Part shown: in pieces, positions 195 through 32,062 of the stretch | Position numbering within the stretch: the first letter of the stretch is position 1 | How the letters are laid out: each line of letters starts with the position of its first letter | Sequence record: OR842557 | Length of the DNA: 64,000 bases | Source: Escherichia phage 04086 | Strand: one strand, 5' to 3' | Notes under the pieces: generated by a model | What the model was told of the DNA's origin: nothing | The model's input: the letters and a program-made list of their open reading frames with translations, nothing else | Database searches by the model: none | Translations under genes and position numbers: made by a program

Positions 195-704
195 ATGAAA
201 ATTTATCGAGTGGAGTCATCGTTCAGTATCTTAGACAACAGCGATGTTATCACAATCACTCGTCAACAATGTCGCCAATTAACCCCGTATAGAGGCTCAT
301 TTGACGAATGGAGTGAAGGTTGGTTATTGGAAGTAGGTTTCGACAGACCTAATTTTAGACACCATCATACCAATAATAAAAATATTCCACTACCAAGTCA
401 AGACGAATTGTTGGTTAGAAATTCTAATACGGTAATTAAAACCAAATTCGAACATGAAGATTATAAAGATGTAGATAACTACATTCCAGGTTGGTTTGTT
501 AACCTCTACCATTTTGCTTTTGCCAGCGAGTATGATATGATGCGCTGGTTTACTCGTGAAGAGCGTGCTGAATTATCTTCTAAAGGATTCTATCTTGCTG
601 TTTACGAAATACCAGAAGATGAGGTTGTCATTGGTGGCCGCCAAGTAATGTTCCGCAAATCCCATGCCGAACTCGTAGATTTTATTGAATTGAGAACAAT
701 ATGA
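195..704 (+). CDS. Hypothetical early protein (169 aa)
   Basis: ORF with upstream promoter cassette and GAGGAGA Shine-Dalgarno; position matches T4 motB/dexA early region but identity not established. Confidence 0.6.
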   Translation: MKIYRVESSFSILDNSDVITITRQQCRQLTPYRGSFDEWSEGWLLEVGFDRPNFRHHHTNNKNIPLPSQDELLVRNSNTVIKTKFEHEDYKDVDNYIPGWFVNLYHFAFASEYDMMRWFTREERAELSSKGFYLAVYEIPEDEVVIGGRQVMFRKSHAELVDFIELRTI

Positions 705-1249
705 AATTTAATTACAACCCTAAATACACTCCAAATCCGGCAGCTAAACTGATTGATTTTGATGTTTTAAGCACTTATGTATGCCCTGTTAAACCACTGG
801 AAATTAAGGAACCTACTATGACTACTCAGACTATCGAAATCGGCAAAACCTACAAACTGGTTGAACCTGAAATTAAAACTAAGGCCTTGATTTCCGGCCA
901 TAAAACTCTGACTGATGTTTTTGGCGAAGGCGAATTTATTGTTGAAGAATTTGCCAAAAGTGACTGGTTTGCCAAATCTTACGTCATCCACGGCCGCCGG
1001 TTAGATAATAACAAAATAGAGAAAACCCTGGTTTATGAAGCAGAGTTAATCCTGTTCCAAGAAGTTGAAGAACAAGACCCTACTGACCTTCTGTGTGCTG
1101 CTGTGTCTATCCGTCGTCCTTTTGATAATCCTATCTGTGGTTGGGTAACAGACCAGTGGGTTGAAGATGGTGTTGAGCTGCTGAACGTTGTCCATGCAGG
1201 TGATTTTAGTGTAGTACCTCGCAGTGCAGTGGTTAATGTATTGAATTAG
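701..1249 (+). CDS. Hypothetical protein (182 aa), paralog of 1323..1889
   Basis: C-terminal ...GWVTDQWVEDGVELLNVVHAGDFSVVPRSAVVNV matches ...GYITDRWVEEGVKLYNIVFLGTFKVVPESFIVEY of the next ORF; ATGA start/stop overlap with upstream ORF. Confidence 0.65.
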   Translation: MKFNYNPKYTPNPAAKLIDFDVLSTYVCPVKPLEIKEPTMTTQTIEIGKTYKLVEPEIKTKALISGHKTLTDVFGEGEFIVEEFAKSDWFAKSYVIHGRRLDNNKIEKTLVYEAELILFQEVEEQDPTDLLCAAVSIRRPFDNPICGWVTDQWVEDGVELLNVVHAGDFSVVPRSAVVNVLN

Positions 1250-1252
1250 TAG

Positions 1253-1286
1253 TTTACTTTATCGAGAGCCATGTTATAATGGCTCT
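1253..1286 (+). promoter_or_regulatory. Early promoter with stem-loop
   Basis: GTTTAC 1253-1258, TATAAT 1275-1280; inverted repeat GAGAGCCAT / ATGGCTCT spans the -10. Confidence 0.55.
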
Positions 1287-1322
1287 TATGGATTATAAAC
1301 CTTTAACCAAGAGAGAAAAATT

Positions 1323-1889
1323 ATGATTACTATTTCCGATATCGGTGGTATTGTTCGTGTATCCAAAAAGTCTCGTTCAAAAGCTGCAGGCCATTTAGTT
1401 GAAGTTGATAGCATCCAACTTAAAGAAGGTGTCAGTGTAGAAAATTCTGAAGTAAAAGTGCGTATCATTCCTAAAAACGGCCAGACTGAAACTCAATTCG
1501 CTTATGTGCGTGCTAAATTCTTGGAATCGACTGAATTTACCGGATACATCGCTCCTGTGGTTGAAGAAGTTGAATCCCATGATGGATATGTATGTGAAAG
1601 CAATGATATCCGTGGCATAGTAGCTCAAGACGTTGAAACTATCGACCAATCTCATGTTGGCGTTGATTTCAAATGGAAATTAGGTAAAGGTGTCTTTTTC
1701 GTTTCACCTAAACCGTTTGAATACAATTGCAAGTACGGACCGACTTATGAAACCACCAGCATGTCCGGTTACATCACCGACCGGTGGGTTGAAGAAGGAG
1801 TTAAGCTCTATAACATCGTGTTCCTTGGAACTTTTAAGGTGGTTCCTGAGAGCTTTATCGTTGAGTATGCTGATATTCATTTTGCATAA
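1323..1889 (+). CDS. Hypothetical protein (188 aa), paralog of 701..1249
   Basis: Shared C-terminal domain with preceding ORF; own promoter cassette upstream. Confidence 0.65.
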   Translation: MITISDIGGIVRVSKKSRSKAAGHLVEVDSIQLKEGVSVENSEVKVRIIPKNGQTETQFAYVRAKFLESTEFTGYIAPVVEEVESHDGYVCESNDIRGIVAQDVETIDQSHVGVDFKWKLGKGVFFVSPKPFEYNCKYGPTYETTSMSGYITDRWVEEGVKLYNIVFLGTFKVVPESFIVEYADIHFA

Positions 1890-1903
1890 AGTTTTAAAAA
1901 ACA

Positions 1904-1950
1904 GTATACAATATGGTAGGGTAGTGATAAGATTACCCTATCAACAAATG
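1904..1950 (+). promoter_or_regulatory. Early promoter variant with stem-loop
   Basis: GTATAC 1904-1909, TGATAAGAT extended -10; inverted repeat AGGGTA / TACCCT. Confidence 0.45.
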
Positions 1951-1963
1951 AGAGGAAAATAAA

Positions 1964-2188
1964 ATGGCTAAAGTTACTGTGAATTCGACTCGTGAAGAAT
2001 TTGAAGATGTTCTGTTCAACCCTGATTTAATCGTGGTTCAAAAGGAACATTCTGATACGTTTTCTCATTTATCGTCGGTTTATGTATACGAAAATCAAGG
2101 TGATAAAACCCCTATCTATGCAGTGTTCCGTGAAATCACTGCTGAAGGCACCGACTTCTGGAAGGAAACTTACAATGCCACTTTATGA
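1964..2188 (+). CDS. Hypothetical protein (74 aa)
   Basis: ORF with GAGAGGAAAATAAAATG ribosome binding site. Confidence 0.55.
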   Translation: MAKVTVNSTREEFEDVLFNPDLIVVQKEHSDTFSHLSSVYVYENQGDKTPIYAVFREITAEGTDFWKETYNATL

Positions 2189-2351
2189 TTATAAATGCCA
2201 ATCTGAAGACTGCGCGAAAGAATACGAAAAAATCAAGAAAATCTCTGAAAGAGATAATGACGTTTGCCCTGATTGCCATCGGCTGGCTGTTCGGTTAGTC
2301 TCGGCTCCTAAACATGTTAATGGCGGTTTTTACGACCTGCTGACTAAGTGA
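2175..2351 (+). CDS. Small zinc-ribbon protein (FmdB-like, 58 aa)
   Basis: MPLYDYKC-x4-C ... C-P-D-C pattern typical of the FmdB-type putative regulatory Zn ribbon; start overlaps upstream stop; the longer 2082 start in the ORF track is unlikely. Confidence 0.55.
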   Translation: MPLYDYKCQSEDCAKEYEKIKKISERDNDVCPDCHRLAVRLVSAPKHVNGGFYDLLTK

Positions 2352-2357
2352 GAAATT

Positions 2358-2618
2358 ATGAAATATATTAATCGTTCTATTGCAGCTCTTGTACTAGCCG
2401 TTTCGTTGGTTGGTTGTACTGATGCTGATAATGCTACCCGTGTATTGGATGCAAATGGCTACGAACAAATCCAAATCACAGGATACAACCTATTTGGCTG
2501 CTCTGAAGATGATTTCCAACGTACAGGCTTTATTGCTGTAGGTCCGACAGGTAAAAGGGTTGAAGGAACAGTTTGTTCCGGGTTATTCTTTAAAAAGTCT
2601 ACCATTCGATTTGATTAA
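2358..2618 (+). CDS. Putative lipoprotein (86 aa)
   Basis: N-terminal signal peptide ending in lipobox LVGC; followed by UUCG hairpin terminator. Confidence 0.6.
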   Translation: MKYINRSIAALVLAVSLVGCTDADNATRVLDANGYEQIQITGYNLFGCSEDDFQRTGFIAVGPTGKRVEGTVCSGLFFKKSTIRFD

Positions 2619-2908
2619 GGGCTTCGGCCCTTTTATGCTTTAAGTGAAATGGGATAATATTCTCCTACTACATGAGGAAATAACATGATTAAGAATGAAA
2701 TTAAAGTACTGTCCGACATTGAACATNCGGTCCGACGGGTAAAAGGGTTGAAGGAACAGTTTGTTCTGGGTTATTCTTTAAAAAGTCGACCATTCGATTT
2801 GATTAAGGGCTTCGGCCCTTTTATGCTTTAAGTGAAATGGGATAATATTCTCCTACTACATGAGGAAATAACATGATTAAGAATGAAATTAAAGTACTGT
2901 CCGACATT
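2546..2908. repeat. N-marked junction (N at 2727) between two ~180 bp near-identical direct copies; probable unmerged overlap of adjoining sequence segments
   Basis: Copy 2 repeats lipoprotein 3' end, terminator and first 42 nt of gene 39; 3 synonymous differences between copies. Confidence 0.8.
2619..2636 (+). terminator. Rho-independent terminator (UUCG tetraloop hairpin plus T-run)
   Basis: GGGCTTCGGCCC followed by TTTTAT. Confidence 0.6.
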
Positions 2909-4690
2909 GAACATATCAAAAAACGTAGTGGGATGTATATTGGCTCCAGTGCTAATGAAGCTCACGGTCGATTCCTGTTTGGTAATTTTACACAGGTAAA
3001 CTATGTTCCTGGACTAGTTAAATTAATTGACGAAATCATTGATAACTCTGTCGATGAAGCTATTCGTACCAATTTTAAATTCGCAAATAAAATTGATGTT
3101 CAAATTAAGAATAACCAGGTTTCAGTTTCTGATAATGGTCGTGGTATTCCACAAGCAATGGTCACCGACCAAAATGGTGAACAGATTCCAGGTCCTGTAG
3201 CAGCATGGACTATTCCAAAGGCGGGTGGTAACTTTGGAGATGACGCTGAGCGTAAGACAGGCGGCATGAATGGTGTCGGTAGTAGTTTAACTAATATCTT
3301 CTCCGTTTTGTTCACAGGCATCACCTCTGATGGCGAGAATGAAATTACAGTTAACTGTTCCAATGGAATGGAAAACAAAGGTTGGTCTACTAAGAAATCT
3401 AAAGGTAAGGGTACTTCGGTTATATTCACTCCAGACTTTAATCATTTTGAAGAGAACTCTCTATCACAAATTTATCTGGATATTACTCTAGATCGTCTTA
3501 AAACTCTAGCTGTAATTTATCCTAGTATCCAATTTACTTTTAATGGTAAAAAAGTAGATGGTAACTTTAAAAAGTATGCTAATCAATTTGGTAAAGATGT
3601 AGTAATTCAAGAAACCGATAATGTCTCAATGGCATTTACCACATCTCCGGATGGATTCCGTCACCTAACTTATGTGAACAATATTCATACTAAGAATGGT
3701 GGTCATCATGTTGAATGTGTGTTTGATGATATCTGCGAACATCTCTTGCCAGGCATCAAGAAGAAATATAAAGGCATCGAAGTAAGTAAGGCCCGAGTTA
3801 AAGAATGCTTAACTATGCTGATGTTCATTCGCGATATGAGTAATATGCGTTTTGATTCCCAGACTAAAGAACGTTTGACGTCACCATTCGGTGAAATTCG
3901 TAACCATATTCAAATTGATGCAAAGAAAATCTCACAGTATATTCTTAAAGACGAAGGGTTGATTATGCCTATCGTTGAAGCTGCTTTAGCACGTAAATTA
4001 GCAGCTGAAAAGGCTGCCGAAACTAAAGCCGCTAAGAAAGCTTCTAAAGCCAAGGTCCATAAGCATATTAAAGCTAACTTATACGGCAAAGATGCTGATA
4101 CAACCCTGTTCCTAACCGAAGGTGATTCCGCTATGGGTCCTTTCATTGAAGTCCGTAATAAAGACCTTCAAGGTGGTTATCCGTTACGTGGTAAGGTTAT
4201 GAATACCTGGGGAATGACAGCAACAGATATCATGAAGAACAAGGAACTATTTGATATCTGTGCAATCACTGGACTGGTTATTGGTGAACCTGCAGAGAAA
4301 ACCAACTATCGTAATATCGCTATCATGACCGATGCTGATGTGGATGGTACTGGTTCGATTTATCCATCATTGCTAGCCTTCTTTAGTCAATGGCCTGAAT
4401 TGTTCGAACAAGGTCGAGTGCGGTTCTGTAAAACTCCGGTAATTATTGCTCAGGTGGGTAAAGAACAGGAATGGTTCTATGATGTCCCTAGTTATACCAA
4501 AGCTAAGGACTCTCTACCAAAACATTCTATTCGTTATATCAAAGGACTAGGTTCTCTTGAGAAGGCCGAATACCGTCGAATGATTCAAGACCCTAAATTT
4601 GATGTGGTTCAATTGCCTGAAGATTGGAAAGAACAGTTCGAAATGCTCCTCGGAAACGACCCTCAACTCCGTAAGGCCTGGATGTCGTAA
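2873..4690 (+). CDS. 39: DNA topoisomerase II large subunit, ATPase (GyrB-like), full-length unsplit form (605 aa)
   Basis: Recalled similarity to T4 gp39; length matches the fused 39+60 form; no gene 60 / mobA insertion. The true start is the second copy after the N junction. Confidence 0.9.
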   Translation: MIKNEIKVLSDIEHIKKRSGMYIGSSANEAHGRFLFGNFTQVNYVPGLVKLIDEIIDNSVDEAIRTNFKFANKIDVQIKNNQVSVSDNGRGIPQAMVTDQNGEQIPGPVAAWTIPKAGGNFGDDAERKTGGMNGVGSSLTNIFSVLFTGITSDGENEITVNCSNGMENKGWSTKKSKGKGTSVIFTPDFNHFEENSLSQIYLDITLDRLKTLAVIYPSIQFTFNGKKVDGNFKKYANQFGKDVVIQETDNVSMAFTTSPDGFRHLTYVNNIHTKNGGHHVECVFDDICEHLLPGIKKKYKGIEVSKARVKECLTMLMFIRDMSNMRFDSQTKERLTSPFGEIRNHIQIDAKKISQYILKDEGLIMPIVEAALARKLAAEKAAETKAAKKASKAKVHKHIKANLYGKDADTTLFLTEGDSAMGPFIEVRNKDLQGGYPLRGKVMNTWGMTATDIMKNKELFDICAITGLVIGEPAEKTNYRNIAIMTDADVDGTGSIYPSLLAFFSQWPELFEQGRVRFCKTPVIIAQVGKEQEWFYDVPSYTKAKDSLPKHSIRYIKGLGSLEKAEYRRMIQDPKFDVVQLPEDWKEQFEMLLGNDPQLRKAWMS

Positions 4691-4733
4691 TAAATATGTA
4701 TGGTACATGAGTGCCATACAATTAGGAGACTTT

Positions 4734-4886
4734 ATGAGAAAGTACTGGATAACGCTAGCCACCGGTGAATTTGGATATCTCTGGGCTGAGAAGAGACCTT
4801 TGTTCGCAGAGTACGTGACCATTATGGTAGAAACCTGGGAAGGCGAATTTTATCAAGTTCGAGGACAAGTCTACAAAATTGAATAA
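4734..4886 (+). CDS. Small hypothetical protein (50 aa)
   Basis: AGGAGA Shine-Dalgarno 7 nt upstream of ATG; followed by hairpin terminator. Confidence 0.4.
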   Translation: MRKYWITLATGEFGYLWAEKRPLFAEYVTIMVETWEGEFYQVRGQVYKIE

Positions 4887-4890
4887 TTAA

Positions 4891-4909
4891 GGGCCGCAAG
4901 GCCCTTTTC
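4891..4909 (+). terminator. Rho-independent terminator
   Basis: GGGCCGCAAGGCCC hairpin then TTTTCGGGG; GTTTAC promoter-like hexamer follows at 4913-4918. Confidence 0.55.
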
Positions 4910-4959
4910 GGGGTTTACAACATAACAAAACTGTGATAGGATTATCTAGAGGTGAGAAT

Positions 4960-5283
4960 ATGATTATGCAAGATAACAGTATAGTGAACACTGATAACCT
5001 GGCTTTATCTTTTATGGAAACGGCTATTCGTAACTGTAAAGATGAAGGAGTAGTGACTACAAGCGGTAAGGGACTTGAATACCTTAAGGCTGTAAAATCT
5101 ATTGCCTTAAAGATTAAAGATAACCAGGCGCTCTCTCCTGTTGTCCAGGAAAAGGTTTTAGAGATAATGTATCGCCACAGAGAGCACAAAAGTACAATGG
5201 GTTCTATGAGAAGAATTCTGGCTGAACTTGGTTCTACCAGAGAATATGTTCAACATGAGGTAGTTAAAAATGACAAACTTTAA
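4960..5283 (+). CDS. Hypothetical protein (107 aa)
   Basis: ORF with GAGGTGAG ribosome binding site. Confidence 0.55.
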   Translation: MIMQDNSIVNTDNLALSFMETAIRNCKDEGVVTTSGKGLEYLKAVKSIALKIKDNQALSPVVQEKVLEIMYRHREHKSTMGSMRRILAELGSTREYVQHEVVKNDKL

Positions 5284-5473
5284 AGTGAATATTGATTTGT
5301 TCGATAAAGCCGTCCATAAAGAATTCCGGCTAATCCAGCGATTTTTTGATATCAATGCGGCTGAGGATTTTAAAGAACGCTTTAAAGAAATCAGATATAA
5401 AATACTCAACGACATCGCTACTAAGGACGAGCTCCTTGAAGTGGCAGACCTTTTTAAACGTAACCTGAATTGA
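5270..5473 (+). CDS. Hypothetical protein (67 aa)
   Basis: ORF overlapping upstream stop, immediately upstream of rIIA. Confidence 0.5.
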   Translation: MTNFKVNIDLFDKAVHKEFRLIQRFFDINAAEDFKERFKEIRYKILNDIATKDELLEVADLFKRNLN

Positions 5474-5480
5474 GAAAAAT

Positions 5481-7691
5481 ATGATTATCGAAACCGAAAA
5501 AGAACAAATCATTGGTAATGGTGCTAAGTCCACAGGCTTTACTATCCAGGCATCGCCTAAGGTCTTTAAAATTCTGTCGTCAGACCTTTATAGTAATAAG
5601 GTACGTGCTGTAGTACGTGAACTAATTACCAACATGATTGATGCTCATATTCTGAATGGTAATAAAGAACGTTGGAAAGTACAGGTTCCTGGTAAACTGG
5701 ACCCTCGTTTCGTGTGCCGTGACTTCGGGCCGGGTATGAGCGATTTCCAAATTCGCGGTGATGAAAATGAAACAGGTTTGTACAACTCTTATTTCGCATC
5801 ATCCAAAACGGCTTCTAATGATTTCATCGGCGGCTTTGGCCTTGGTTCAAAATCTCCGTTCAGTTATACCGAAACGTTTAATATCACCTCATGGCATAAC
5901 GGTGAAGTTCGTGGTTATGTAGCTTATATGGACGGCGATGGCCCGCAGATTAAACCCACTTTCGTCGAACCTATGCAGCCAGGCGATAAAACAGGTATCG
6001 AAATCACGGTTCCTGTTGATGAAGAAGATTTCCGTAAGTTTGAAACTGAAGTTCGTTATATCATGCGGCCTTTCATTGGCCTTGGTGATGTCGATGGTGT
6101 TGAAGTTGATTATTTCCCTGAATTTGACGATTACTATCCTGTAACCACTACAAATTATGGCAACTTCGAACGTTCAGGTCTTTATGCTGTTTATGGTGGT
6201 ATTGTCTATCCATTAGATTCAGCTTATAATAAAGGCACATGGATGCGTACTCGCCATGATGTAGTTTATATTAAGTTCCCTATGGGTTCACTGGATATTG
6301 CTCCGTCTCGTGAAGTGCTGTCTCTTGATAAACGTACGATGGAAAATATTGCAACCCGTATCGAAGCACTGGATGCCTTGGTCTTTAAAAACGATACACA
6401 GGAATGGGTTGAATCTGATAATCCACGCCATGTTTATCGTGACCTTTCTAACCTTGGTTACAGTGCTCGTGACTATCTTACCAAAAAAGGTGGAACTAGC
6501 CTGTTTACTACAGAAAAATTGACCTTTGAAAAACTGTATCAAAAATATACACTTCAAAACGACCTTCTTAATTTAGGCGTTGTTTACGAAATCGTTTCAG
6601 ACCCACGTTTGAAACGAATTAAGCCGAGTGGTAATACTTCTTCGGTGGCAGGACTTAGTAGTTTATTAGGCATTAATAAGAAAGAAATCCATGTTGTTTA
6701 TGATGATGAAAAGGGTCGTGTGCCACTAGTTCGAGGACTTTGGGCCTTGGCAATGGACAACAGTGCTTCGGCTAAGAAAATTGTTAAAGAGAACAATATT
6801 CCTAAATACGGAACCGACCTTATTTTTGTCGACCCAAATTCAATGCTGCAAATGCAACAACTTGAAAAGGTTAAAGAACTTTTTAAAGGTGACACCATTC
6901 ATTTTTATAAAGTCTCAGAGCTGAATAAAATTGTTAAGCCATGGATTCCGGTTACTGTGCGTTCATCAGAACCTCGTCCTAAAACACCGAGTGCTTATCG
7001 TTGGTTCATTAAAGACGGGCGTTGGCAAACAGAGACCATGTATTTGACCGCCGCAGAAGCAGAAGAAATTACAGGTTATGTGCTGTTTGGCAGTCGTTCT
7101 GATATCATGGGAATGGACGAAGCTTATGGTATCTTTGACATCAATACCACTACCATGTGTCGTATGGCTAATTTGATTGGTGTAACAGAATTCCATATCA
7201 TTCGCCCTCAGATTGCCAAAAAGATTAAAAAGTTAGGTCAATGTGAATGCTTGATGGAAGCTACATTAGAAGCCTATGCCGAAGCCCTAGACGCGGTAGA
7301 TGTTGATGACTACCTTGGTAGTAATACCCGTGCTCGGTATTACCTTGAAATCATTGCCAAGTTCCCTGAGCTCGGTTTCATGACTAAGTATTTTAGTGAT
7401 AAGCCTGTGACTGAAGCATATACTCGTCTGAGTAATTTCTATGATATATTCCGTTATATGAATTTCCATGGTTATATCACTGATGACAAGCTTTCCGTTA
7501 TCAAGAAAATTTGTAACACCACGTTTAATACGTTAACCAATAATGCTTCAAGCAACAATGATAAAATGACTTTACAGTTTGAATCTGATTACCATTTAGT
7601 TTCGGACTACATGTATCGTCGTGGAACATCCATTACCGAGGCTTCTGTAGCTCAAATCGTTAAATTCATGAAAGCCGTGGAAGCGGCTTAA
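5481..7691 (+). CDS. rIIA: rIIA protein (736 aa), GHKL-type ATPase N-terminal domain
   Basis: Length and position next to rIIB; N-terminal region with ELITNMIDAH and GFGLGSKS motifs characteristic of histidine-kinase-like ATPase fold found in rIIA. Confidence 0.9.
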   Translation: MIIETEKEQIIGNGAKSTGFTIQASPKVFKILSSDLYSNKVRAVVRELITNMIDAHILNGNKERWKVQVPGKLDPRFVCRDFGPGMSDFQIRGDENETGLYNSYFASSKTASNDFIGGFGLGSKSPFSYTETFNITSWHNGEVRGYVAYMDGDGPQIKPTFVEPMQPGDKTGIEITVPVDEEDFRKFETEVRYIMRPFIGLGDVDGVEVDYFPEFDDYYPVTTTNYGNFERSGLYAVYGGIVYPLDSAYNKGTWMRTRHDVVYIKFPMGSLDIAPSREVLSLDKRTMENIATRIEALDALVFKNDTQEWVESDNPRHVYRDLSNLGYSARDYLTKKGGTSLFTTEKLTFEKLYQKYTLQNDLLNLGVVYEIVSDPRLKRIKPSGNTSSVAGLSSLLGINKKEIHVVYDDEKGRVPLVRGLWALAMDNSASAKKIVKENNIPKYGTDLIFVDPNSMLQMQQLEKVKELFKGDTIHFYKVSELNKIVKPWIPVTVRSSEPRPKTPSAYRWFIKDGRWQTETMYLTAAEAEEITGYVLFGSRSDIMGMDEAYGIFDINTTTMCRMANLIGVTEFHIIRPQIAKKIKKLGQCECLMEATLEAYAEALDAVDVDDYLGSNTRARYYLEIIAKFPELGFMTKYFSDKPVTEAYTRLSNFYDIFRYMNFHGYITDDKLSVIKKICNTTFNTLTNNASSNNDKMTLQFESDYHLVSDYMYRRGTSITEASVAQIVKFMKAVEAA

Positions 7692-7705
7692 TCTAAGGAA
7701 ATATT

Positions 7706-8872
7706 ATGTACAATATTAAGTGTCTGGCTAAATCTGAACAAGAGAAAGTAGTTTCCCTCTATAAATCCGGTAATTATACTCAGCAAGAATTAGCTGACTG
7801 GTATAGTGTTTCGGTTGATACCATTCGTAAAGTCCTGAAAAATGCTGAAGAAGCTAAACGTTCTCAAGTGGCTAAAGAATTAGCCGAATCTCTTAAAAAA
7901 GCACCTACTGTACCTCTTAACGCCCCAACAGAAGTGGTTATTACTGGAAATATCAAAGTAACGGTTCCTAACGAGCCTCGTGTAGTTCCGGTTGATATTA
8001 CTATTGGTGGTTCTCGTCCAGAAATTATCTGGAATGCTAGTTCTAAATTCGTGTCCATCACCGAAGGCCGTACAGTATGGAACACCACTAATAAGAACAA
8101 ACATTTTGATGCCATCGTACAGGCTCTTAAAGAATCTCGTTTTGACGACGCGATTAAACTGATTTCCATTAAAGAAGCTGTTAAGGCCTTCGTCAAAGGT
8201 AACGTTCGTATTGAAGGCGGACGTCTGGTTTATCAAGGTATCGAATTGCGTTCCGGTTTGATTGACCGTATTATCACCTCAATGGAAAATGGCGAAGACT
8301 TCGAATTCTACCTGCCGTTCCTTGAGAACCTGTTAGAAAACCCAAGTGAAAAAGCTGTACAGCGTCTGTTCGACTTCTTGGTCGCGAACGATATCAAAAT
8401 CACTGAAGACGGCCACTTTATCACATGGAAGGTGGTTAACTCCGATTACACCGACTGCCGTACTGGTACGTTTGATAANNNTGAAAAAGCTGTACAGCGT
8501 CTGTTCGACTTCTTGGTCGCGAACGATATCAAAATCACTGAAGACGGCCACTTTATCACATGGAAGGTGGTTAACTCCGATTACACCGACTGCCGTACTG
8601 GTACGTTTGATAACTCACCAGGCAAACCGGTTAAAATGCCTCGTTCACGTGTAAACAATGACGACACAGTAACTTGTTCAAGCGGTCTACACGTTTGCTC
8701 TCGTAGCTATATCGGCGCATTTGGTAATTCAAACAACCGTGTAGTTTCATGTAAAGTTAACCCACGTGATGTTGTTAGTATTCCTGTTGATTATGGCGAT
8801 GCTAAAATGCGCGTATGTTATTATGAAGTTCTGGAAGACGTTACCGATCAGTTTAAATCAGATTTACGTTAA
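7706..8872 (+). CDS. rIIB: rIIB protein; annotated length inflated by a 135-nt in-frame duplicated segment with NNN
   Basis: Position downstream of rIIA; real length about 343 aa after removing the duplicated copy. Confidence 0.85.
   Translation: MYNIKCLAKSEQEKVVSLYKSGNYTQQELADWYSVSVDTIRKVLKNAEEAKRSQVAKELAESLKKAPTVPLNAPTEVVITGNIKVTVPNEPRVVPVDITIGGSRPEIIWNASSKFVSITEGRTVWNTTNKNKHFDAIVQALKESRFDDAIKLISIKEAVKAFVKGNVRIEGGRLVYQGIELRSGLIDRIITSMENGEDFEFYLPFLENLLENPSEKAVQRLFDFLVANDIKITEDGHFITWKVVNSDYTDCRTGTFDXXEKAVQRLFDFLVANDIKITEDGHFITWKVVNSDYTDCRTGTFDNSPGKPVKMPRSRVNNDDTVTCSSGLHVCSRSYIGAFGNSNNRVVSCKVNPRDVVSIPVDYGDAKMRVCYYEVLEDVTDQFKSDLR
8348..8612. repeat. N-marked junction (NNN at 8479-8481) between identical direct copies inside rIIB
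   Basis: 131-nt segment GAAAAAGCTGTACAGCG...GTTTGATAA present twice, separated by NNN. Confidence 0.85.
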
Positions 8873-8880
8873 AACTAAAC

Positions 8881-8896
8881 GGAGGCTTCGGCCTCC
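8881..8896 (+). other. UUCG-tetraloop RNA hairpin (weak terminator or stability element)
   Basis: GGAGGCTTCGGCCTCC directly after rIIB stop, no strong T-run. Confidence 0.45.
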
Positions 8897-8908
8897 TAAG
8901 AGGAAATT

Positions 8909-9106
8909 ATGTTAGGTTACCAAGCACGTGTAGTTGAAGAATACGACCAGTTAGTTCTTAAAATTAATGCACTAGAAACCTTTATTAAAGGCGGTGTTTT
9001 TGAAACTCTTGATATCCGTCAACAAGGGTTACTGATTGCCCAACTGGATGCGATGGGTGCATATGCTCATTGTTTAGAGGTTCGTATTTCTTATTTCGGT
9101 GAGTAA
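8909..9106 (+). CDS. Hypothetical protein (65 aa)
   Basis: ORF with AGAGGAAATTATG ribosome binding site. Confidence 0.5.
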   Translation: MLGYQARVVEEYDQLVLKINALETFIKGGVFETLDIRQQGLLIAQLDAMGAYAHCLEVRISYFGE

Positions 9107-9107
9107 A

Positions 9108-25700: not shown

Positions 25701-26695
25701 GTATTATTAGGGCCAAAAACAATAACACTTTCGTTAGCCAAGAGCTCAACATCGTCACGAATTACACGTAAACGAGTTTGACGGTCGCCGTCCCAAACAT
25801 ACCATAATTTTTCGGTAGAGTTATAAACAAAGAATCCATCACCGGAGGTACGGAATTCCATGCTATGCTGACCAAGCTTACCTAATGAAGATGAAGCATC
25901 AAACGTTTCAACGATTAAGTGGAATTTACTTCCTAAACCATCGATATCAACGGTTTTAATCATATCACCTTGGTTTGCATACTTAGGAAGAGTAAACTTA
26001 ATTACTGCACCTGAAGTATAACGACGAAGAACGTTATCACCTGCTTGAGACTGGAATTGTGCGGTGTTAGGTTCTACACGGATACCACGTTCTTCGTTAC
26101 CCGATTCCCAGAAATGCCAAAGACGGTTAGCAAAGATAAGCATGTTATAAGAAAAAGGCTTAGTTATCAGGGTTTCAGAGAACTGATTACCAAAACGAAC
26201 AATTTTCTGATTGCCACCACCAGGAGCAGAACTAGATTGGACCTTGATTTCGTTATAACCTACGCGACCACCAATATCCTTGATTACGATGGTATCACCA
26301 TCAGTAGGGTTAGGAGGCAGGGTAAATGTAGTAAAGCTAGCAGCAGAATCCACCGCAATATATTCACCGGAAGCCAGCTGGCGTGTAGGAGACGCTACAG
26401 TAATCCATTTAGGGTCAGTACGGGTAGCGGTCCAATAACCCGGTACAAAGGTTCCTGCAGGAGCATCGATATCACGTTGAGCAACCCAGATACGTTGGTC
26501 ATGGATTACTGCAAACCCATTCTTATATCCTCGCGTCTCGTCGTACGCCTGGATGGTGTTCTCATCTATAAAGAATTCAACGTTGACGCCATCATCTAAT
26601 ACATTGTAATCGGCTTTGGCAACATTGATAACTTTCTCGCCCGCAGCATCGAGTCCGGATGTAGCACGGAATGCAGGTTTTAAAATATCAGCCAT
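22796..26695 (-). CDS. 34: Long tail fibre proximal subunit gp34 (1299 aa)
   Basis: Size (T4 gp34 1289 aa), position, repetitive beta-rich sequence. Confidence 0.9.
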   Translation of the reverse strand: MADILKPAFRATSGLDAAGEKVINVAKADYNVLDDGVNVEFFIDENTIQAYDETRGYKNGFAVIHDQRIWVAQRDIDAPAGTFVPGYWTATRTDPKWITVASPTRQLASGEYIAVDSAASFTTFTLPPNPTDGDTIVIKDIGGRVGYNEIKVQSSSAPGGGNQKIVRFGNQFSETLITKPFSYNMLIFANRLWHFWESGNEERGIRVEPNTAQFQSQAGDNVLRRYTSGAVIKFTLPKYANQGDMIKTVDIDGLGSKFHLIVETFDASSSLGKLGQHSMEFRTSGDGFFVYNSTEKLWYVWDGDRQTRLRVIRDDVELLANESVIVFGPNNTTPQTINITLPTSVAQGDVVKIALNYLRKAQTVNIKASVGDKIASSVQLLQFPKRSEYPPDTEWVLNDVLTFNGNLSYTPVIELSYIEDITTGGKYWVVAQNVPTVERVDSKDDLTRARLGVIALASQTQANVDHENNPEKELAITPQTLANRVATESRRGIARIATTAQVNQNTGFAFQDDLIISPKKLNERTATETRRGVAEIATQQETDAGVDDTTIITPKKLQTRQGTESLSGIVKYVSTTGTTPATSRATVGTNVYNKNTTTLVISPKALDQYKANYENQGAVYLATQAEVNAGATNLGFSNSVVTPETLGARRATDTNHGLIEIATQTETDAGTDYTRAVTPKTLNDRNATQTLTGIARIGTQVEFDAGVLDNVISTPLKVKTRFNDTARTSVSAASGLIETGTLWNHYTLDIREASNTQRGTARLATQTEVNTGIDDKTIITPLKLQAKKATENAEGIIQLATQAEVIVGTVSNKAFSPKHYKYIVQQEKSWEATSARRGYVKLTTGTATWEGDDTNGSVANLAKFEDDGFAISPFQMNTALTHYLPIKGKAFDSDKLDNLDSSQFVRRDIDQIVEGTLTLRKNIRVDGQLATGGTGEFGGSLAANSTFTIRNTGASTRLIFEKGPQTGNNPFQTMNIRVWGNQFAGGSDTSRSTIFEVGDETSNHFYSQRNNLGNITFSINGTVQPINVNASGTLNANGVATFGRSVTAQGEFITYSANAFRAISGQYGFFIRNDNSNIYFMLTNANDQTGGFNGLRPLAISNTSGQVTIGESLIIAKGATINLGGLTVNSRIRSQGTKPADLYSRKPNADNTGFWSVDVNDSATYNQFPGYFKMVEKTNEVTGLPYLVRGEEVKSPGTLTQFGNTLNSLYQDWITYPNTADGSTTRWTRTWQQNKNAWSGFVQVFDGGNPPQPSDIGALPSDNASMSNLTIRDWLRIGNVRIVPDPVTRSVKFEWIDTP

Positions 26696-26727
26696 TTTAT
26701 TTCCTTTTCGTTTTCAGGGTATAGAAC

Positions 26728-26735
26728 TATTTATA
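26728..26735 (-). promoter_or_regulatory. Late promoter (TATAAATA) for gene 34
   Basis: Reverse complement of 26728-26735 is TATAAATA about 30 nt upstream of gene 34 start codon. Confidence 0.65.
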
Positions 26736-26742
26736 GCAAAGT

Positions 26743-26800
26743 GTTTACTTCTTCTAGGGTCATGATATAATGAACCTCTACACTAATTGGACAGAGGTTC
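26743..26800 (+). promoter_or_regulatory. Early promoter with stem-loop, divergent from the gene 34 late promoter
   Basis: GTTTAC 26743-26748, 17 bp, TATAAT 26766-26771; inverted repeat GAACCTCT / AGAGGTTC ends at the rnh start. Confidence 0.6.
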
Positions 26801-26802
26801 AT

Positions 26803-27750
26803 ATGAACGATTTAGATTTTTTACTTCCTGAAGAAGACCAACAAAAAGATGGATTCTTGTTGTTAGACTTTAGCCAAATCATTATGGCTGCAGCTTTCCA
26901 AGAGTTTGGTGAGAATGCTGGATTTCCTAAAGTAACTACAGCAATGCTTCGACATCTCGTGTTGAATTCAATTAAGAAAAACATTAAAGACTTTAAAAAA
27001 CAAGGTTACAACCAATTAATCATTTGTGTTGATAACTCCAAATCAGGTTATTGGCGTCGTCGTTATTCTTCTTATTATAAGAAAAACCGTGCTAAGGCTC
27101 GTGATGAATCACCATTTGACTGGGAAGGCTTATTCACAGCAATGCACATTATTGTTGATGAACTGGAACAAAACATGCCTTATATTGTTATGAATATCGA
27201 TACAATCGAGGCTGATGACCATATTGCTGTATTGACTCGCATCCTCACGGCTTTAGGCCATCCTGTTATGATCGGTTCTTCGGATGGTGACTTTACCCAA
27301 CTTCATAAATTCCCTGGGGTAAAACAATGGTCTCCAATGCAGAAAAAATTCGTCAAAACGAAATCTGGCGATGCCTTGCTTGATTGTGTAACTAAAGTAG
27401 TTAAAGGCGACCGCAAGGATAACGTTGCAAGTATTAAAGTTCGTGGTGATTATTGGTTGACAATGGTTGAAGGCGAACGTACTCCTAGCACTCGTGCCAA
27501 GGAACTTGAAGCAATTGCTCTTAATTATTATGACCATGATATAATTAAAACACTTCTTACTGAAGAACAATATGAACGTTTCTGTGAAAACCAAATCTTA
27601 ATTGATATGGACTTTATTCCAGATGATATTGTTGCTTTAATTACTGAAAGATATAATACGTATAACAAACCTTCGAAATCTAAAGTTTATCCTTATTTCG
27701 TTAAATCTGGTTTGTCTAAACTAACCGCTACAGTAGCTGATTTTTATTAA
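26803..27750 (+). CDS. rnh: RNase H / 5'-3' exonuclease (FEN family, about 315 aa)
   Basis: Recalled similarity to T4 RNase H (CIDNSKSGYWRR, YYKKNR, SSDGDFTQLHK, QWSPM). ATG at 26803 chosen because the upstream ATG at 26770 lies inside the -10. Confidence 0.9.
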   Translation: MNDLDFLLPEEDQQKDGFLLLDFSQIIMAAAFQEFGENAGFPKVTTAMLRHLVLNSIKKNIKDFKKQGYNQLIICVDNSKSGYWRRRYSSYYKKNRAKARDESPFDWEGLFTAMHIIVDELEQNMPYIVMNIDTIEADDHIAVLTRILTALGHPVMIGSSDGDFTQLHKFPGVKQWSPMQKKFVKTKSGDALLDCVTKVVKGDRKDNVASIKVRGDYWLTMVEGERTPSTRAKELEAIALNYYDHDIIKTLLTEEQYERFCENQILIDMDFIPDDIVALITERYNTYNKPSKSKVYPYFVKSGLSKLTATVADFY

Positions 27751-27751
27751 G

Positions 27752-28030
27752 GTGAATATAATGGCTAAAGAAAAAGTGAAAGTTGAATTCAATCAAGAAG
27801 AACATGGTAACACATTGGCACAACTGATTAAGTCTGCTTCCGATACTAAATTAAAAATGGAAGCCTACGGTGACGAAATTAAAGATATCAAAGACCGCGC
27901 TAAGACTGAACTTGGTGTAGACGGTAAAATGTTTAACCAACTGTTCTCACTGTATCATAAAGGCACTCGTGAACGTTTCGAAGATGAAAAAACTGAAGTG
28001 GTAGAACTGTATGACACAATCTTTGAATGA
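27752..28030 (+). CDS. dsbA: dsDNA-binding late transcription enhancer DsbA (92 aa)
   Basis: Size and position between rnh and 33 as in T4. Confidence 0.7.
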   Translation: MNIMAKEKVKVEFNQEEHGNTLAQLIKSASDTKLKMEAYGDEIKDIKDRAKTELGVDGKMFNQLFSLYHKGTRERFEDEKTEVVELYDTIFE

Positions 28031-28313
28031 TTTTGATGGAGCGGTTAATACCGCTTCCGAACCTGTCCATGTATTGGTAAATAAACAACAGAATGGCCTT
28101 GATATTGAGGCCTTTGTTGAGGCTGAAGGTTGTAGTTACCTCGAAGCGGCTACCGCATGGTTGGAAGAGAACAGCATCCCTGAAGGTAACTTTGCTCGTT
28201 ATTTGCCTGCAGGAATTATTGATAAAATTATGAACGAAGCCATTGATGATAACTTGCTTCGACCTTCAATGGCCCGAACGCAAAAGACTAATACCCTGGA
28301 TTTCTTGTTATGA
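28011..28313 (+). CDS. 33: Late transcription co-activator gp33 (100 aa)
   Basis: Size and position between dsbA and 59. Confidence 0.7.
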   Translation: MTQSLNDFDGAVNTASEPVHVLVNKQQNGLDIEAFVEAEGCSYLEAATAWLEENSIPEGNFARYLPAGIIDKIMNEAIDDNLLRPSMARTQKTNTLDFLL

Positions 28314-28963
28314 TTAAGATTCGCATGCCACCAAACAATAACCGTATGGTGAACGGCAAAAGTGTATATTCCCTATACTTAATGCTCAAACATCACTTCA
28401 ATGCCAAATACGACGTTATCAAATATAACTGGGTCATGCGAATCTCTGATACGGCTTATCAAAAACGTCGTGACAAATATTTCTTTGAGAAATTGAGTGA
28501 TAAATACACTTTGAAAGAGCTTGCTCTTATCTTCATGAGTAACTTGGTGGCTAACCAGGATGCATGGATTGGCGACATCAGTGATGCTGACGCCTTAGTC
28601 TTTTACCGAGAATATATCGGTAGACTTAAAAGAATAAAACAAGTTTTTGAGGATGATATCAAAAACATTTATTATTTTAGTAAGAAAGTGGAAGTTAAAG
28701 CGCTTTCTGAAATTTTTGATTATAATAAAAAAGTTAACTCGAGCTATATTTTTAAGCTCCTTCAATCGAATGTTATTTCATTCGAAACGTTTATTTTGCT
28801 TGACAGTTTTCTCAATATAATTGATAAGCATGATGAACAGACCAACGATTTAGTGTGGTCTAAATACTCCACCAAGTTAAATGCTTATAAGAAAATTCTT
28901 ATAATAGATGCTGTAGAGGCAAGAAAATTATTCATTGAGACTATTAAGAGTTGTCAATTTTGA
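28310..28963 (+). CDS. 59: Helicase loader gp59 (217 aa)
   Basis: Strong recalled similarity to T4 gp59 (KYDVIKYNW, QKRRDKYFF, LVANQDAWIGDISDADALVFYREYIGRLK). Confidence 0.95.
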   Translation: MIKIRMPPNNNRMVNGKSVYSLYLMLKHHFNAKYDVIKYNWVMRISDTAYQKRRDKYFFEKLSDKYTLKELALIFMSNLVANQDAWIGDISDADALVFYREYIGRLKRIKQVFEDDIKNIYYFSKKVEVKALSEIFDYNKKVNSSYIFKLLQSNVISFETFILLDSFLNIIDKHDEQTNDLVWSKYSTKLNAYKKILIIDAVEARKLFIETIKSCQF

Positions 28964-29580
28964 ATATAGTCTATTGGCTAGAATTTAGTCAACGTATCAA
29001 AGCCAAAACACCTCCCTATTATTACATTGGGTCTAAGCATGATTGCTTAATTAAAAATGGTGTTATAATTGATTCACGTAACAAAGAATATTGGTCTTCG
29101 TGTAAACAACCACGATTTATCTCTGCTTTGTCTGAGCGTCCTAAAGTTAAAGTTCTTCATGTATGCGAAGATGTTTTAACTGAAGAAGAATTTTACCATA
29201 ATCATTATGATGTGGTTAAATCACCCTTATTCTTTAATAAGGCAATGGCTAAAGGGACTTTCAAATCCTGTTTGAAAGGTAAATCCAAATCTGAAAGCCA
29301 TAAACAAAAGATGAAAGAAAGTTCTCATCTTAAAGGTAAAGAGCCATGGGAACATCCTAATGCTATAGCAAAAGGTACCCATTTAGTGTGGAAAAATGCT
29401 AAAGTCTTTTATGACTGGTATATAGGCCCACATGAAACTACTAGATTAGGTCCGAAGATAATGTCTCGTGAAACCGGTTTAGCCTGTTCTACAATGACAG
29501 GGCATTCAATGATAAATAAATTTAAATCAGGATGGAATCCTCATCTCGATATTAAATTTAATGAATTTGCTTCAAACTGA
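28951..29580 (+). CDS. Putative homing endonuclease, seg-like (degenerate GIY-YIG with NUMOD-like motif); positional equivalent of T4 segG
   Basis: N-terminal IVYWLEF...YYYIGSKH resembles GIY-x10-YIG; KGKSKSESHKQKMKESSHLKGK resembles NUMOD3-type motif; sits between 59 and 32. Start codon uncertain. Confidence 0.55.
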   Translation: MSILNIVYWLEFSQRIKAKTPPYYYIGSKHDCLIKNGVIIDSRNKEYWSSCKQPRFISALSERPKVKVLHVCEDVLTEEEFYHNHYDVVKSPLFFNKAMAKGTFKSCLKGKSKSESHKQKMKESSHLKGKEPWEHPNAIAKGTHLVWKNAKVFYDWYIGPHETTRLGPKIMSRETGLACSTMTGHSMINKFKSGWNPHLDIKFNEFASN

Positions 29581-29682
29581 GGGTGATATAATTACCCTCT
29601 GGAACAAACCTAGTTATCAAGGTAAACGTGATAACAACAACTGTTAATAAATTTATTAAATATATCAAATAAGGTAAATAAT

Positions 29683-30594
29683 ATGTCTATGTTTAAACGC
29701 CGTAATCCTGCTGAACTTGCTGCTCAACTGTCTGCAATGAAAGGTGGTTCTTCTTTCTCTTCCGATGATAAAGCTGAATGGAAATTGAAAGATGACAACG
29801 GTGTTGGTACTGCGGTAATTCGTTTCCTACCTTCGAAAAACGAAGAAAATCCATCTCCATTCATTAAGCTCGTTAACCACGGCTTTAAGAAAAATGGTCA
29901 ATGGTATATTGAAAACTGTACGTCTACTCACGGTGATTTCGATTCTTGTCCTGTATGTAAATACATGAACCAGAACGATACCTTTAATACTAATAATGCC
30001 GAATACAAACTGATGAAACGTAAAACTTCCTTCTGGGCTAACATCCTTGTTATTAAGGATAGTGCAGTGCCTGCTAACGAAGGTAAAGTGTTTAAATTCC
30101 GTTTCGGTCAGAAAATTATGGATAAAATCAACCAGATGGTTGAAGTTGATACTGATATTGGTGAAGTGCCGGTTGACGTAACATGTCCGTTTGATGGTGC
30201 GAACTTCGTACTGAAATCTAAGAAAGTTGGCGACTTCAAAAACTACGACGATTCCAAATTCATGGGTCAGTCTGAAATTCCTAACATCAATGATGAAGCT
30301 TACCAAGCTAAATTGATGGAAGAAATGCACGACCTTTCTAAACTGCTCGATTTCAAATCATTCGAAACTAACGAAGCCAAGTTTAAGAAAGTTGTTGGTA
30401 CAGCTGCTCTTGGTGGTGCTGCCGCTAAAGCTTCTGCTGCCGCTGATAAGATTGGTGATGACCTGGACGCATTCAGTGCAGACCTTGATGCATATGATTC
30501 CAAACCGTCTACACCCGCTCGTTCCACCACTCCTGAGCCGTCAGTAAGTCCTTCTGATGACGATGGTCTGGACGACCTGTTAGCTGGTCTATAA
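29683..30594 (+). CDS. 32: ssDNA-binding protein gp32 (303 aa)
   Basis: Strong recalled similarity to T4 gp32 ([32 protein letters not shown], acidic [10 protein letters not shown] tail). Confidence 0.95.
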
Positions 30595-30610
30595 GTTATT
30601 GATTTATAAA

Positions 30611-30635
30611 GGGAAGACTTCGGTCTTCCCTTTTT
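30611..30635 (+). terminator. Rho-independent terminator
   Basis: GGGAAGACTTCGGTCTTCCC then TTTTT. Confidence 0.7.
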
Positions 30636-30646
30636 GGCATTTAACG

Positions 30647-30700
30647 GTTTACAATGCCTTTAAACATGATACTATAGACTTATCAACTACATGAGGAAAT
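30647..30700 (+). promoter_or_regulatory. Early promoter cassette
   Basis: GTTTAC 30647-30652, 17 bp, TACTAT 30670-30675; shared core CATGATACTATAGAC..ATCAAC; ATGAGGAAATAAAATG leader. Confidence 0.6.
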
Positions 30701-30703
30701 AAA

Positions 30704-31090
30704 ATGGAAATCGGTAAAACTTATGAACTTCGTCCTGAGCGTATCAAAGCTTTTATTAATATCAGCCCTATCAATAATAACGATATGGTAGATATTATCC
30801 AAGACAATGGTGGTTGGTTTGAAGTAAAGGATACGATGACCTCGGATGAGGATAAATTTGTAACTAAAATCAAATGTGCGAATGGTAAGATTTTTAGTGC
30901 AGACGGGACACTAGAGGAATATTTTGAATTGCATGAAGATGAGTTCTATTGCTTCCGTGAATATGGTGAACAAGCTGATGGACTTGACACCCCTGTTACT
31001 AAGGCAGGTGTGACTCAAATCCATTGCATTGTTACCGAACAAAACGTTGACCAAATCATTGAACTTTTGCAAAAAACTTTTAAGGCCTAA
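30704..31090 (+). CDS. Hypothetical protein (128 aa), paralog of 31703..32062
   Basis: MEIGKTYELRPE...EEYFELHEDEF aligns with METGKTYALDPA...DEYFELGEWEF. Confidence 0.65.
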   Translation: MEIGKTYELRPERIKAFINISPINNNDMVDIIQDNGGWFEVKDTMTSDEDKFVTKIKCANGKIFSADGTLEEYFELHEDEFYCFREYGEQADGLDTPVTKAGVTQIHCIVTEQNVDQIIELLQKTFKA

Positions 31091-31091
31091 T

Positions 31092-31352
31092 ATGACTAAA
31101 GATGATTTCCTGGATGCAGTAGAAAAAGCCAGTGAGAAATTTGAAGTGATGGGTGTGCGAGTTCATAAAGACCGAAATTACGGGCTCGATATCCAAACGT
31201 ATTCGTTATGGCTTGTAGGTGAACATAGTCTTGTAACCACTTTAGTTATGGGTGTTGATGCCCAACCTTTACTGGTTAAATTCAGAAGTATGGAAAAAGC
31301 TACCAAAGAAATGATTAAACTTGGTAAATGGCTCGATAAAATTCAAAAATAA
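31092..31352 (+). CDS. Hypothetical protein (86 aa)
   Basis: ORF with AAGG ribosome binding site; ATG at 31092 preferred. Confidence 0.5.
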   Translation: MTKDDFLDAVEKASEKFEVMGVRVHKDRNYGLDIQTYSLWLVGEHSLVTTLVMGVDAQPLLVKFRSMEKATKEMIKLGKWLDKIQK

Positions 31353-31354
31353 AT

Positions 31355-31415
31355 GTTTACACCTGCTTTAAACATGATACTATAGACCCATCAACTAATG
31401 AGTGAGGAAAATAAA
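31355..31415 (+). promoter_or_regulatory. Early promoter cassette
   Basis: GTTTAC 31355-31360, 17 bp, TACTAT 31378-31383; same conserved core as the 30647 and 13821 cassettes. Confidence 0.6.
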
Positions 31416-31643
31416 ATGGCTAAGGTTAATATTGATATCGTTGATTTTGAATACACTTACGAAGTTATCCGTAATCGTTATCCTTCTTTAGTTATGACCC
31501 ATATTAAAGATACCCAATTCTGTAGTATGCAAATTGAAGTCCAAGGTCCTCTTGAAGACCTTACCCGCTTTATGGCTGACGAGTATTGTGACGGTATGCA
31601 CCCGGAAGACGCTAAATTTTATATGAATTTGATTAAAGCCTAG
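31416..31643 (+). CDS. Hypothetical protein (75 aa)
   Basis: GAGGAAAATAAAATG ribosome binding site. Confidence 0.55.
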
Positions 31644-31677
31644 TATACAAACCGACGGGAACATGATAATATGTTCC
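31642..31677 (+). promoter_or_regulatory. Early promoter variant with stem-loop
   Basis: GTATAC 31642-31647, 17 bp, GATAAT 31665-31670; inverted repeat GGGAACAT / ATGTTCC. Confidence 0.5.
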
Positions 31678-31702
31678 TTAAATTGAATATGAGGAAATAA
31701 AA

Positions 31703-32062
31703 ATGGAAACTGGTAAAACTTACGCATTAGACCCCGCTGCTAAAAAACAATTCATCGCTGGTGGTGATGCGGGCATGGTCAAGTTGATGGAACAACACGG
31801 CAATTCCTTCAAAGTCCTGGATATGTGTTATATCGATGGCGATTATTTTGTTGAAAAAGTTGAAATGAAAGACGGTACTATCCTGAATAGTATGGGTGGG
31901 CCTGATGAGTACTTTGAACTCGGTGAATGGGAATTCAAACACTTCCTGGAAGTTGATGGCGATGCCCCTGATATTGATACCCAAACCATTCATGTACAAG
32001 TCAATCACAAAAATGCCGCTGAAGTCATTGCCTTGATTAAAACAACTTTTGATATCCAGTAA
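31703..32062 (+). CDS. Hypothetical protein (119 aa), paralog of 30704..31090
   Basis: See 30704..31090. Confidence 0.65.
   Translation: METGKTYALDPAAKKQFIAGGDAGMVKLMEQHGNSFKVLDMCYIDGDYFVEKVEMKDGTILNSMGGPDEYFELGEWEFKHFLEVDGDAPDIDTQTIHVQVNHKNAAEVIALIKTTFDIQ

Follow-up and report, generated by a model that had tools for sequence, protein, structure and literature searches.

T4 MotB, the best characterized relative of the genes considered here, is a tight, non-specific DNA binder that coats DNA, has a toxic effect on E. coli and co-purifies with H-NS and StpA; it changes the H-NS footprint and up-regulates (de-represses) H-NS-repressed host genes (PMC6070864, PMC7827196). MotB-like proteins, T4 MotB.1 included, keep their C-terminal domain on differing N-terminal domains, and it has been suggested that one of motB and motB.1 derives from the other by duplication (Patterson-West et al. 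2021, PMC7827196). Here we follow up an earlier note on a 64,000-nucleotide stretch of Escherichia phage 04086 (record OR842557), which we call the window. That note was made from the sequence without database searches and singled out three pairs of small early genes, which we identify as motB.1 and motB, two frd.2 genes, and two copies of gene 30.4.

MotB.1 and Frd.2 have also been placed, together with GoF, in an LSm-like family of the Tevenvirinae whose N-terminal five-stranded beta domain is the EIGKTY-type module discussed below. The C-terminal domains of the models in this family are “of various structures”, GoF and MotB.1 gave no confident multimer models, the wild-type forms of both had no RNA effect, with MotB.1 inactive in an RNA reporter assay, and in the laboratory T4 motB.1 and frd.2 mutants showed no phenotype (Kim et al. 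2025, PMC12152347). In T4-type phages, composite promoter/stem-loop cassettes (PeSLs) mediate modular shuffling (Arbiol 2010, Comeau 2014; PMC2839356, PMC4122927); their definition comes from the RB49/phi1, PST and nt-1 phage pairs, and the 2014 paper makes no mention of JS98 (Comeau 2014). Gene 30.3, or adfN, encodes a NADAR anti-DarTG1 enzyme with a demonstrated role (PMC11257639). We found no mention of gp30.4 in the literature.

By sequence the window belongs to a Dhakavirus, a JS98/IME08/AnYang-like T4-type coliphage of the Tevenvirinae, and its DNA at the three regions is 92–97% identical to Dhakavirus genomes (AnYang, IME08, C6, WG01, LHE83, JS98 group). Genes were named from the annotated records of IME08, JS98 and WG01 and by BLASTP against T4 proteins. 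All six open reading frames (ORFs) are present, on the + strand, and are 93–99% identical to counterparts in published Dhakavirus genomes. The three pairs are very probably true paralogs, each pair from a known family of T-even accessory early genes, and they arose by different routes. Pairwise BLASTP aligned MotB.1 with MotB at the C-terminus only (18 of 34 residues identical, 53%, E 1e-10), the two Frd.2 proteins collinearly over 126 residues (37% identity, E 2e-20) and the two 30.4 proteins over 70 residues (54% identity, E 2e-25). When the pairs were compared by local alignment with 2000 residue shuffles, the Smith-Waterman z values were 14.5, 26.7 and 37.6, respectively, and 0/2000 shuffles attained the observed score in any pair, while unrelated ORF pairs of the same window gave z ~0. 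Each paralog also independently matches the Pfam or PHROG families of its pair. The earlier note had proposed three duplicated pairs that would fall if alignment scores were non-significant under shuffling; they are borne out, and the placing of these genes among early-region accessory genes in plastic regions was correct. However, as gene duplications the three pairs are not equivalent: one is the sharing of a C-terminal motif, one consists of two old subtypes, and one is a tandem duplicate, which moreover lies outside the range of 701–32062 that the note had assigned to the families.

The two frd.2 genes are, as judged from sequence, two old subtypes of the same LSm-like family that are also found singly in other phages. 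Type A (30704–31090, +, 128 residues) is the T4-like subtype and equals JS98 frd.2b, with 61% identity to T4 Frd.2 and 88% to the JS98 protein; type B (31703–32062, +, 119 residues) equals JS98 frd.2a, with 34% and 78% identity, respectively. Both exceed the gathering score of PF03197 (FRD2; 29 bits), type A with 130 bits (E 5.5e-38) and type B with 111.4 bits (E 3.7e-32). A tblastn search with Frd.2B found 648 places in 572 phage records, 66 of which hold the B type (at least 60% identity). T4 has type A only, VR5-like loci have type B only, and both types occur elsewhere in varying order: A, orf232, frd.3, B in the window and IME341, and B then A, adjacent, in JS98 and IME281. The breakpoints coincide with repeated cassettes (D2, D3, D4). 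The 48-nucleotide promoter cassette before frd.2A is 83% identical to the one before frd.3 (31350–31397; frd.3 at 31398–31643), and the 37-nucleotide cassette before frd.2B is 76% identical to the one before frd.1 (32068–32104; frd.1 at 32140–32379). Early-type promoters lie within the cassettes of frd.2A (30648–30675, +), where the cassette follows a GC stem-loop, and frd.2B (31644–31672, +); among the frd.2 breakpoint cassettes, a stem-loop was seen directly before frd.2A only. The two genes also have near-identical ribosome-binding sites and first codons. The breakpoint positions suggest a reordering that fits the PeSL idea, in which recombination at the repeated early-promoter cassettes would have shifted types A and B with respect to one another, with the near-identical ribosome-binding sites and first codons as putative further recombination sites.

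The 30.4 pair is the only one of the three that looks like an in-place tandem duplication. Copy A (50197–50409, +, 70 residues) is the ortholog of the single-copy 30.4 of other phages, with 97–99% identity to single-copy Dhakavirus orthologs and 44% to T4 gp30.4; copy B (50419–50631, +, 70 residues) is a divergent extra copy that shares 27% identity with T4 gp30.4 and no more than 56% with any sequence of the A type. Both match phrog_2042 over their full length (1–70; E 1.2e-33 for A, 5.6e-25 for B), and PF26911 is carried by every protein recovered in both 30.4 homolog searches. The family is small, with 45 clusters in a word-indexed profile search, and HMMER, run exhaustively against 1.84 billion representatives, returned only the family itself and two long repetitive proteins, which were matched in many short stretches and judged spurious. 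By tblastn, 30.4 occurs at 734 places in 721 phage records, so that about 13 of these records would carry two copies. Among WG01, T4 and 15 IMG/VR loci, both copies are found only in WG01, and the rest have a single A-type copy. The two copies are 64% identical as DNA, and an 11-nucleotide direct repeat, GTGTCAAAGAT, stands at the end of both, at the junction. Net charge is −2 in copy A, −6 in T4 gp30.4 and +4 in copy B. The last 8 nucleotides of copy B overlap the start of adfN, as those of the single copy do in other phages. An AlphaFold2 model of copy A (predicted local distance difference test score, pLDDT, 90.5) has an alpha+beta fold with an N-terminal helix and three long strands, and a structure search with it gave no informative relatives. 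We propose that the duplication was lineage-restricted, took place inside the 30.7–30.2 operon and was bounded by the repeat; copy A would have stayed conserved, and copy B would have diverged, with its net charge shifting from −2 to +4.

The second copies could alternatively be divergent alleles acquired from other phages by recombination, and not duplicates that arose within the lineage. We hold this to be somewhat unlikely for the pairs as a whole, though it is a serious contender. It suits Frd.2 well, where each type occurs alone elsewhere, the orders differ and repeated promoter cassettes flank the genes, all as cassette transfer would have it, and the MotB.1 N-terminal modules likewise differ between phages, with one, two or three modules of two types. 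At gene 30.4, on the other hand, no B-type-only locus was found among the 15 IMG/VR loci and T4, copy B is nearest to the Dhakavirus A type (54–56% identity, versus 27% to T4), and the direct repeat at the junction also argues for duplication in place. By either route, the copies go back to a duplication that took place long ago in the gene pool of the T-even phages.

The earlier note had described a C-terminal domain common to the first pair of ORFs, and this holds, with the match confined to the C-terminus. MotB (1323–1889, +, 188 residues) is a full-length member of the Pfam motB family (PF17613, 200.7 bits, E 1.8e-59; gathering score 25 bits), with 53% identity to T4 MotB over its full length and 93.6% to IME08 MotB. 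MotB.1 (701–1249, +, 182 residues) is of the long form, matches phrog_2333 (E 2e-87) and is 92.9% identical to IME08 MotB.1; its match to PF17613 (35.9 bits) is confined to profile positions 118–153, and we therefore consider it a partial motB-family member through its C-terminal motif only. hhalign paired the MotB.1 C-terminus with MotB over 37 columns (probability 97%). The motif occupies residues 143–179 of MotB.1 (1127–1237, +; GWVTDQWVEDGVELLNVVHAGDFSVVPRS) and, by BLASTP and hhalign, residues 145–181 of MotB (1755–1865, +). As the alignments have it, then, the first pair is a C-terminal motif of ~37–45 residues on unrelated N-terminal domains, a case of domain shuffling and not of whole-gene duplication. 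In MotB this motif would be joined to a KOW-like N-terminal domain, and in MotB.1 to an LSm/SH3-like beta-barrel of the Frd.2/GoF/MotB.1 superfamily. A weak match of the MotB.1 C-terminus inside Alt (57314–57439, E 0.08) was treated as spurious.

The LSm/SH3-like module of MotB.1 (833–1078, +; residues 45–126) is homologous to the N-terminal domain of Frd.2. In a six-frame translation of the window, the motif [EK][ITV][GDN]K.Y.L occurs in exactly three places, at 836, 30707 and 31706, which are the starts of both frd.2 genes and a site inside motB.1. MotB.1 and Frd.2A align by BLASTP over 127 residues (E 0.001; z = 6.2 against shuffles), MotB.1 residues 44–126 match the Frd.2 family phrog_622 (E 1.8e-4), and hhalign aligned the two N-terminal domains over 79 columns (P 1.3e-4). 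Homology is clear between the MotB.1 N-terminal domains of the window type and the T4 type (P 3.7e-9), the latter of which matches that of GoF (P 3.4e-5); by hhalign and phrog_622, a homologous N-terminal domain thus runs through GoF as well as through MotB.1 and Frd.2. The MotB.1 model, of low confidence, has five strands (50–53, 79–86, 93–100, 105–112 and 119–122), and a Pfam scan of the proteins gave no LSM or Hfq match at E ≤ 1. The earlier note had pointed to the EIGKTY.L.PE start of the frd.2 genes inside motB.1. The link between the modules stands by BLASTP and hhalign; the literal pattern does not, since it fits Frd.2A whereas MotB.1 has EIGKTYKLVEPE, one residue longer. The sharing of this module was already published in 2025.

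A broader relationship, in which Frd.2 and MotB.1 would be homologous over their whole length including their C-terminal parts (IHCIVTEQNVDQIIELL versus ICGWVTDQWVEDGVELL) and MotB, MotB.1, Frd.2 and GoF would form one family, appears improbable. The BLASTP and hhalign alignments do run through the C-terminal segment, MAFFT puts both segments in the same columns, and the low-confidence MotB.1 model has a helix at 154–164 that matches the position of the Frd.2 C-terminal helix. However, when the C-terminal parts were compared by themselves with hhalign, none of the matches was significant (Frd.2 versus MotB.1, P 0.15; Frd.2 versus MotB, 0.73; GoF versus MotB.1, 0.9), and we rejected whole-length homology of Frd.2 and MotB.1 for this reason; the varied C-terminal structures of the published models also speak against it. 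In our reading, the N-terminal module links MotB.1 to Frd.2 and GoF, and the C-terminal motif links it to MotB.

MotB.1 differs in its modules from phage to phage. The protein has 249–251 residues in some related phages: in L025, L027 and L028 (~2871–3626) two LSm-like modules stand in tandem, with the window type ahead of the T4 type, and in L021 and L023 (~2862–3617) there is an extra 82-residue N-terminal segment, which may be a further module. In L032 the gene is split into two ORFs. The window protein carries a conserved N-terminal extension of 43 residues that is predicted to be disordered. Within it lies a short motif, (I/L)D(F/M)D(V/I/L)xS(T/M)YVxP(V/I), at 749–796 (residues 17–32), which recurs in the MotB.1 variants of L021, L025 and L033 as an inter-module linker or ahead of the C-terminal motif; it may be a conserved linear motif or the remnant of a lost upstream module. 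As for GoF, most related loci, as well as IME08 and T4, have its gene between cef and 39.2. The window lacks canonical goF at this junction (2175–2188), where cef (1964–2188) overlaps 39.2 directly and tblastn with GoF found no copy. Elsewhere, an ORF at 44821–45375 (+, 184 residues, phrog_5804) has a weakly GoF-like N-terminus (phrog_2980, E 4e-5; hhalign against GoF, P 1.6e-3) and matches phrog_3710, as does Frd.2A; this phage may thereby have a fourth member of the LSm-like family.

Comparison with T4 also revealed that the reference motB.1 of that phage is truncated. It has a 1-nucleotide insertion, an extra G (ATTGGAAG), where the 16 other phages compared have ATTGAAG; the frameshift was located by comparing 5142–5400 of the T4 locus (L004, NC_000866) with 1138–1212 of the window. 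The conserved C-terminal motif is cut short by it, while the last 29 codons of the gene (EDGVELLNVVHAGEYSVVPRSAVVAILN) are intact in the next frame. The close relatives UFV10 and slur11 have intact MotB.1 proteins of 144–145 residues, and a pattern scan of IMG/VR, a collection that does not contain T4 itself, found only two contigs, both in frame. The published MotB.1 assays concern the 13.8 kDa truncated form. Because the T4 form is without the conserved C-terminal motif, its null phenotype is perhaps uninformative for the intact protein and may not reflect the one encoded in the window; for experiments, the intact multi-module forms may be a better choice than the truncated allele of T4.

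Promoters of the T4-early type, defined as TTTAC/TATAC, a spacer and an extended −10 element TGnTAnnAT, were found 14 times on the + strand of the window and 0 times on the − strand, against an expected 0.25 (mean of 100 dinucleotide shuffles). A generic sigma-70 scan gave site counts that were not above those of shuffles, and only the extended −10 T4-early-type pattern was informative. Seven of the 14 promoters are in the three regions, before motB.2, motB, frd.2A, frd.3, frd.2B, frd.1 and 30.7. The promoter of motB.2 and the coupled motB.1 is at 140–167 (+; TTTACT-16-TGATATTAT), that of motB is at 1253–1280 (+; TTTACT-16-TGTTATAAT), and the operon 30.7-30.6-30.5-30.4A-30.4B-adfN-30.2 has its promoter at 49238–49265 (+). 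The motB.1 start overlaps the stop of motB.2 (195–704) in an ATGA, and motB.1 is translationally coupled. The statement in the earlier note that a promoter cassette precedes each is therefore right for motB, frd.2A and frd.2B, and wrong for motB.1 and both 30.4 copies, which lie inside operons, have Shine-Dalgarno sequences of their own and are served by the promoters at 140 and 49238. Neighboring genes not located above are gene 32 (29683–30594), genes 30.7, 30.6 and 30.5 (49307–50195), and adfN (50624–51082, +; PF08010, E 4e-65).

A role of these genes in host takeover or anti-defense, as the note had also suggested, finds support for MotB only, through the T4 data (PMC6070864, PMC7827196). 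With 53% identity, the window MotB would have the role of T4 MotB. In MotB.1, the common C-terminal motif would direct LSm-like modules, between one and three of them in a given phage, to the partner or site of MotB. The T4 mutants lend the suggestion no support for MotB.1 and Frd.2, and it touches gp30.4 by position only. Frd.2 types A and B would act as small beta-barrel binders of nucleic acid or protein, and gp30.4 as a small binder of alpha+beta fold that is expressed together with AdfN, the target specificity of copy B being new or altered. It is a doubtful, though conceivable, extension of this idea that gp30.4 is a counter-defense or accessory factor acting with or alongside AdfN, to which its translation is coupled, and that copy B is a neofunctionalized duplicate whose fixation was driven by an arms race against a variant host target.

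Several points weigh against our overall interpretation. The MotB.1 model is poor (pLDDT only 54), and because of this its beta-barrel is supported here by sequence profiles and the literature models only. The hhalign P-values between Frd.2 and MotB.1 are modest (1e-3 to 1e-4). The T4 motB.1 and frd.2 mutants lack a laboratory phenotype, and experimental data on function are confined to T4 MotB. The 30.4 copies share only 55% identity at third codon positions, so that the event would be old, though its distribution is narrow, and copy B could in principle stem from an unsampled phage instead of an in-place duplication. PeSL involvement in the frd.2 region is putative and is read from the breakpoint positions.

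Chance or compositional matches among short AT-rich ORFs can be dismissed, for although the proteins are short and the MotB/MotB.1 match spans only 34–37 residues, the shuffling scores, the z ~0 of unrelated ORFs and the independent Pfam and PHROG matches already refute them. Assembly artefacts as the source of the pairs are equally refuted: exact repeats bounded by N do occur elsewhere in the window, but the paralogs are merely 37–54% identical as protein and 64% as DNA, and the same pairs are found in the independent published genomes of IME08, JS98, IME341 and WG01. These repeats were observed at two sites. One is a near-exact tandem repeat (2550–2727 and 2738–2915, at a 188-nucleotide offset, with an N at 2727) in which the last part of 39.1 with its terminator hairpin and the opening codons of gene 39 appear twice, creating a spurious ORF at 2685–2831; it looks like an assembly artefact. 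The other is an X-bounded exact internal repeat in an ORF at 57755–58564, probably an artefact as well. The two repeats suggest assembly problems in the window, which holds 14 N in all. The ORF at 57755–58564 follows Alt (ADP-ribosyltransferase, 693 residues, 55670–57751), and by eye its N-terminal ~190 residues are clearly Alt-like; the two make a further paralog pair outside the list of the earlier note.

Much of this is ordinary, as MotB and MotB.1, the frd.2 subtypes and the common module have already been described. New, if minor, are the rare charge-switched 30.4 copy, the frd.2 reordering at promoter cassettes, the varying number of MotB.1 modules and the T4 motB.1 frameshift. The main value of the work lies in showing that real paralog families, and a real common module, can be recovered from raw sequence by a reader who has no tools. 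Three small leads also follow, namely the charge-switched 30.4 duplicate adjoining a proven anti-defense gene, the intact multi-module MotB.1 forms and a clean example of accessory-gene reordering at promoter cassettes.

Set against the known systems, the motB region of the window has the same gene order as T4 (motB.2, motB.1, motB, cef) and the same conserved C-terminal domain. The difference lies in MotB.1, which in the window has 182 residues, an intact C-terminal motif and the 43-residue extension, whereas T4 MotB.1 has 119 residues and a different-looking N-terminal domain; the window protein probably corresponds to “Category 4” of Patterson-West et al. 2021. The relationship between MotB.1 and Frd.2 is seen here by plain BLASTP, whereas no BLASTP similarity was reported among the T4 proteins (PMC12152347). 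In the frd region, the repeated early-promoter cassettes, some of them after a GC stem-loop, flank the genes and coincide with the breakpoints as PeSLs would; in contrast, no cassette lies at the junction of the 30.4 copies. JS98 has the same two Frd.2 subtypes, already named frd.2a and frd.2b in the NC_010105 annotation, but there B precedes A with no promoter between them, whereas the window has A ahead of B, which is placed two genes downstream and has a promoter of its own. Finally, gp30.4 resembles its T4 counterpart in position, size, 8-nucleotide overlap with 30.3 and sequence, and differs from it in being tandemly duplicated, with an extra copy that is basic whereas the sampled members, copy A and T4 gp30.4, are acidic.

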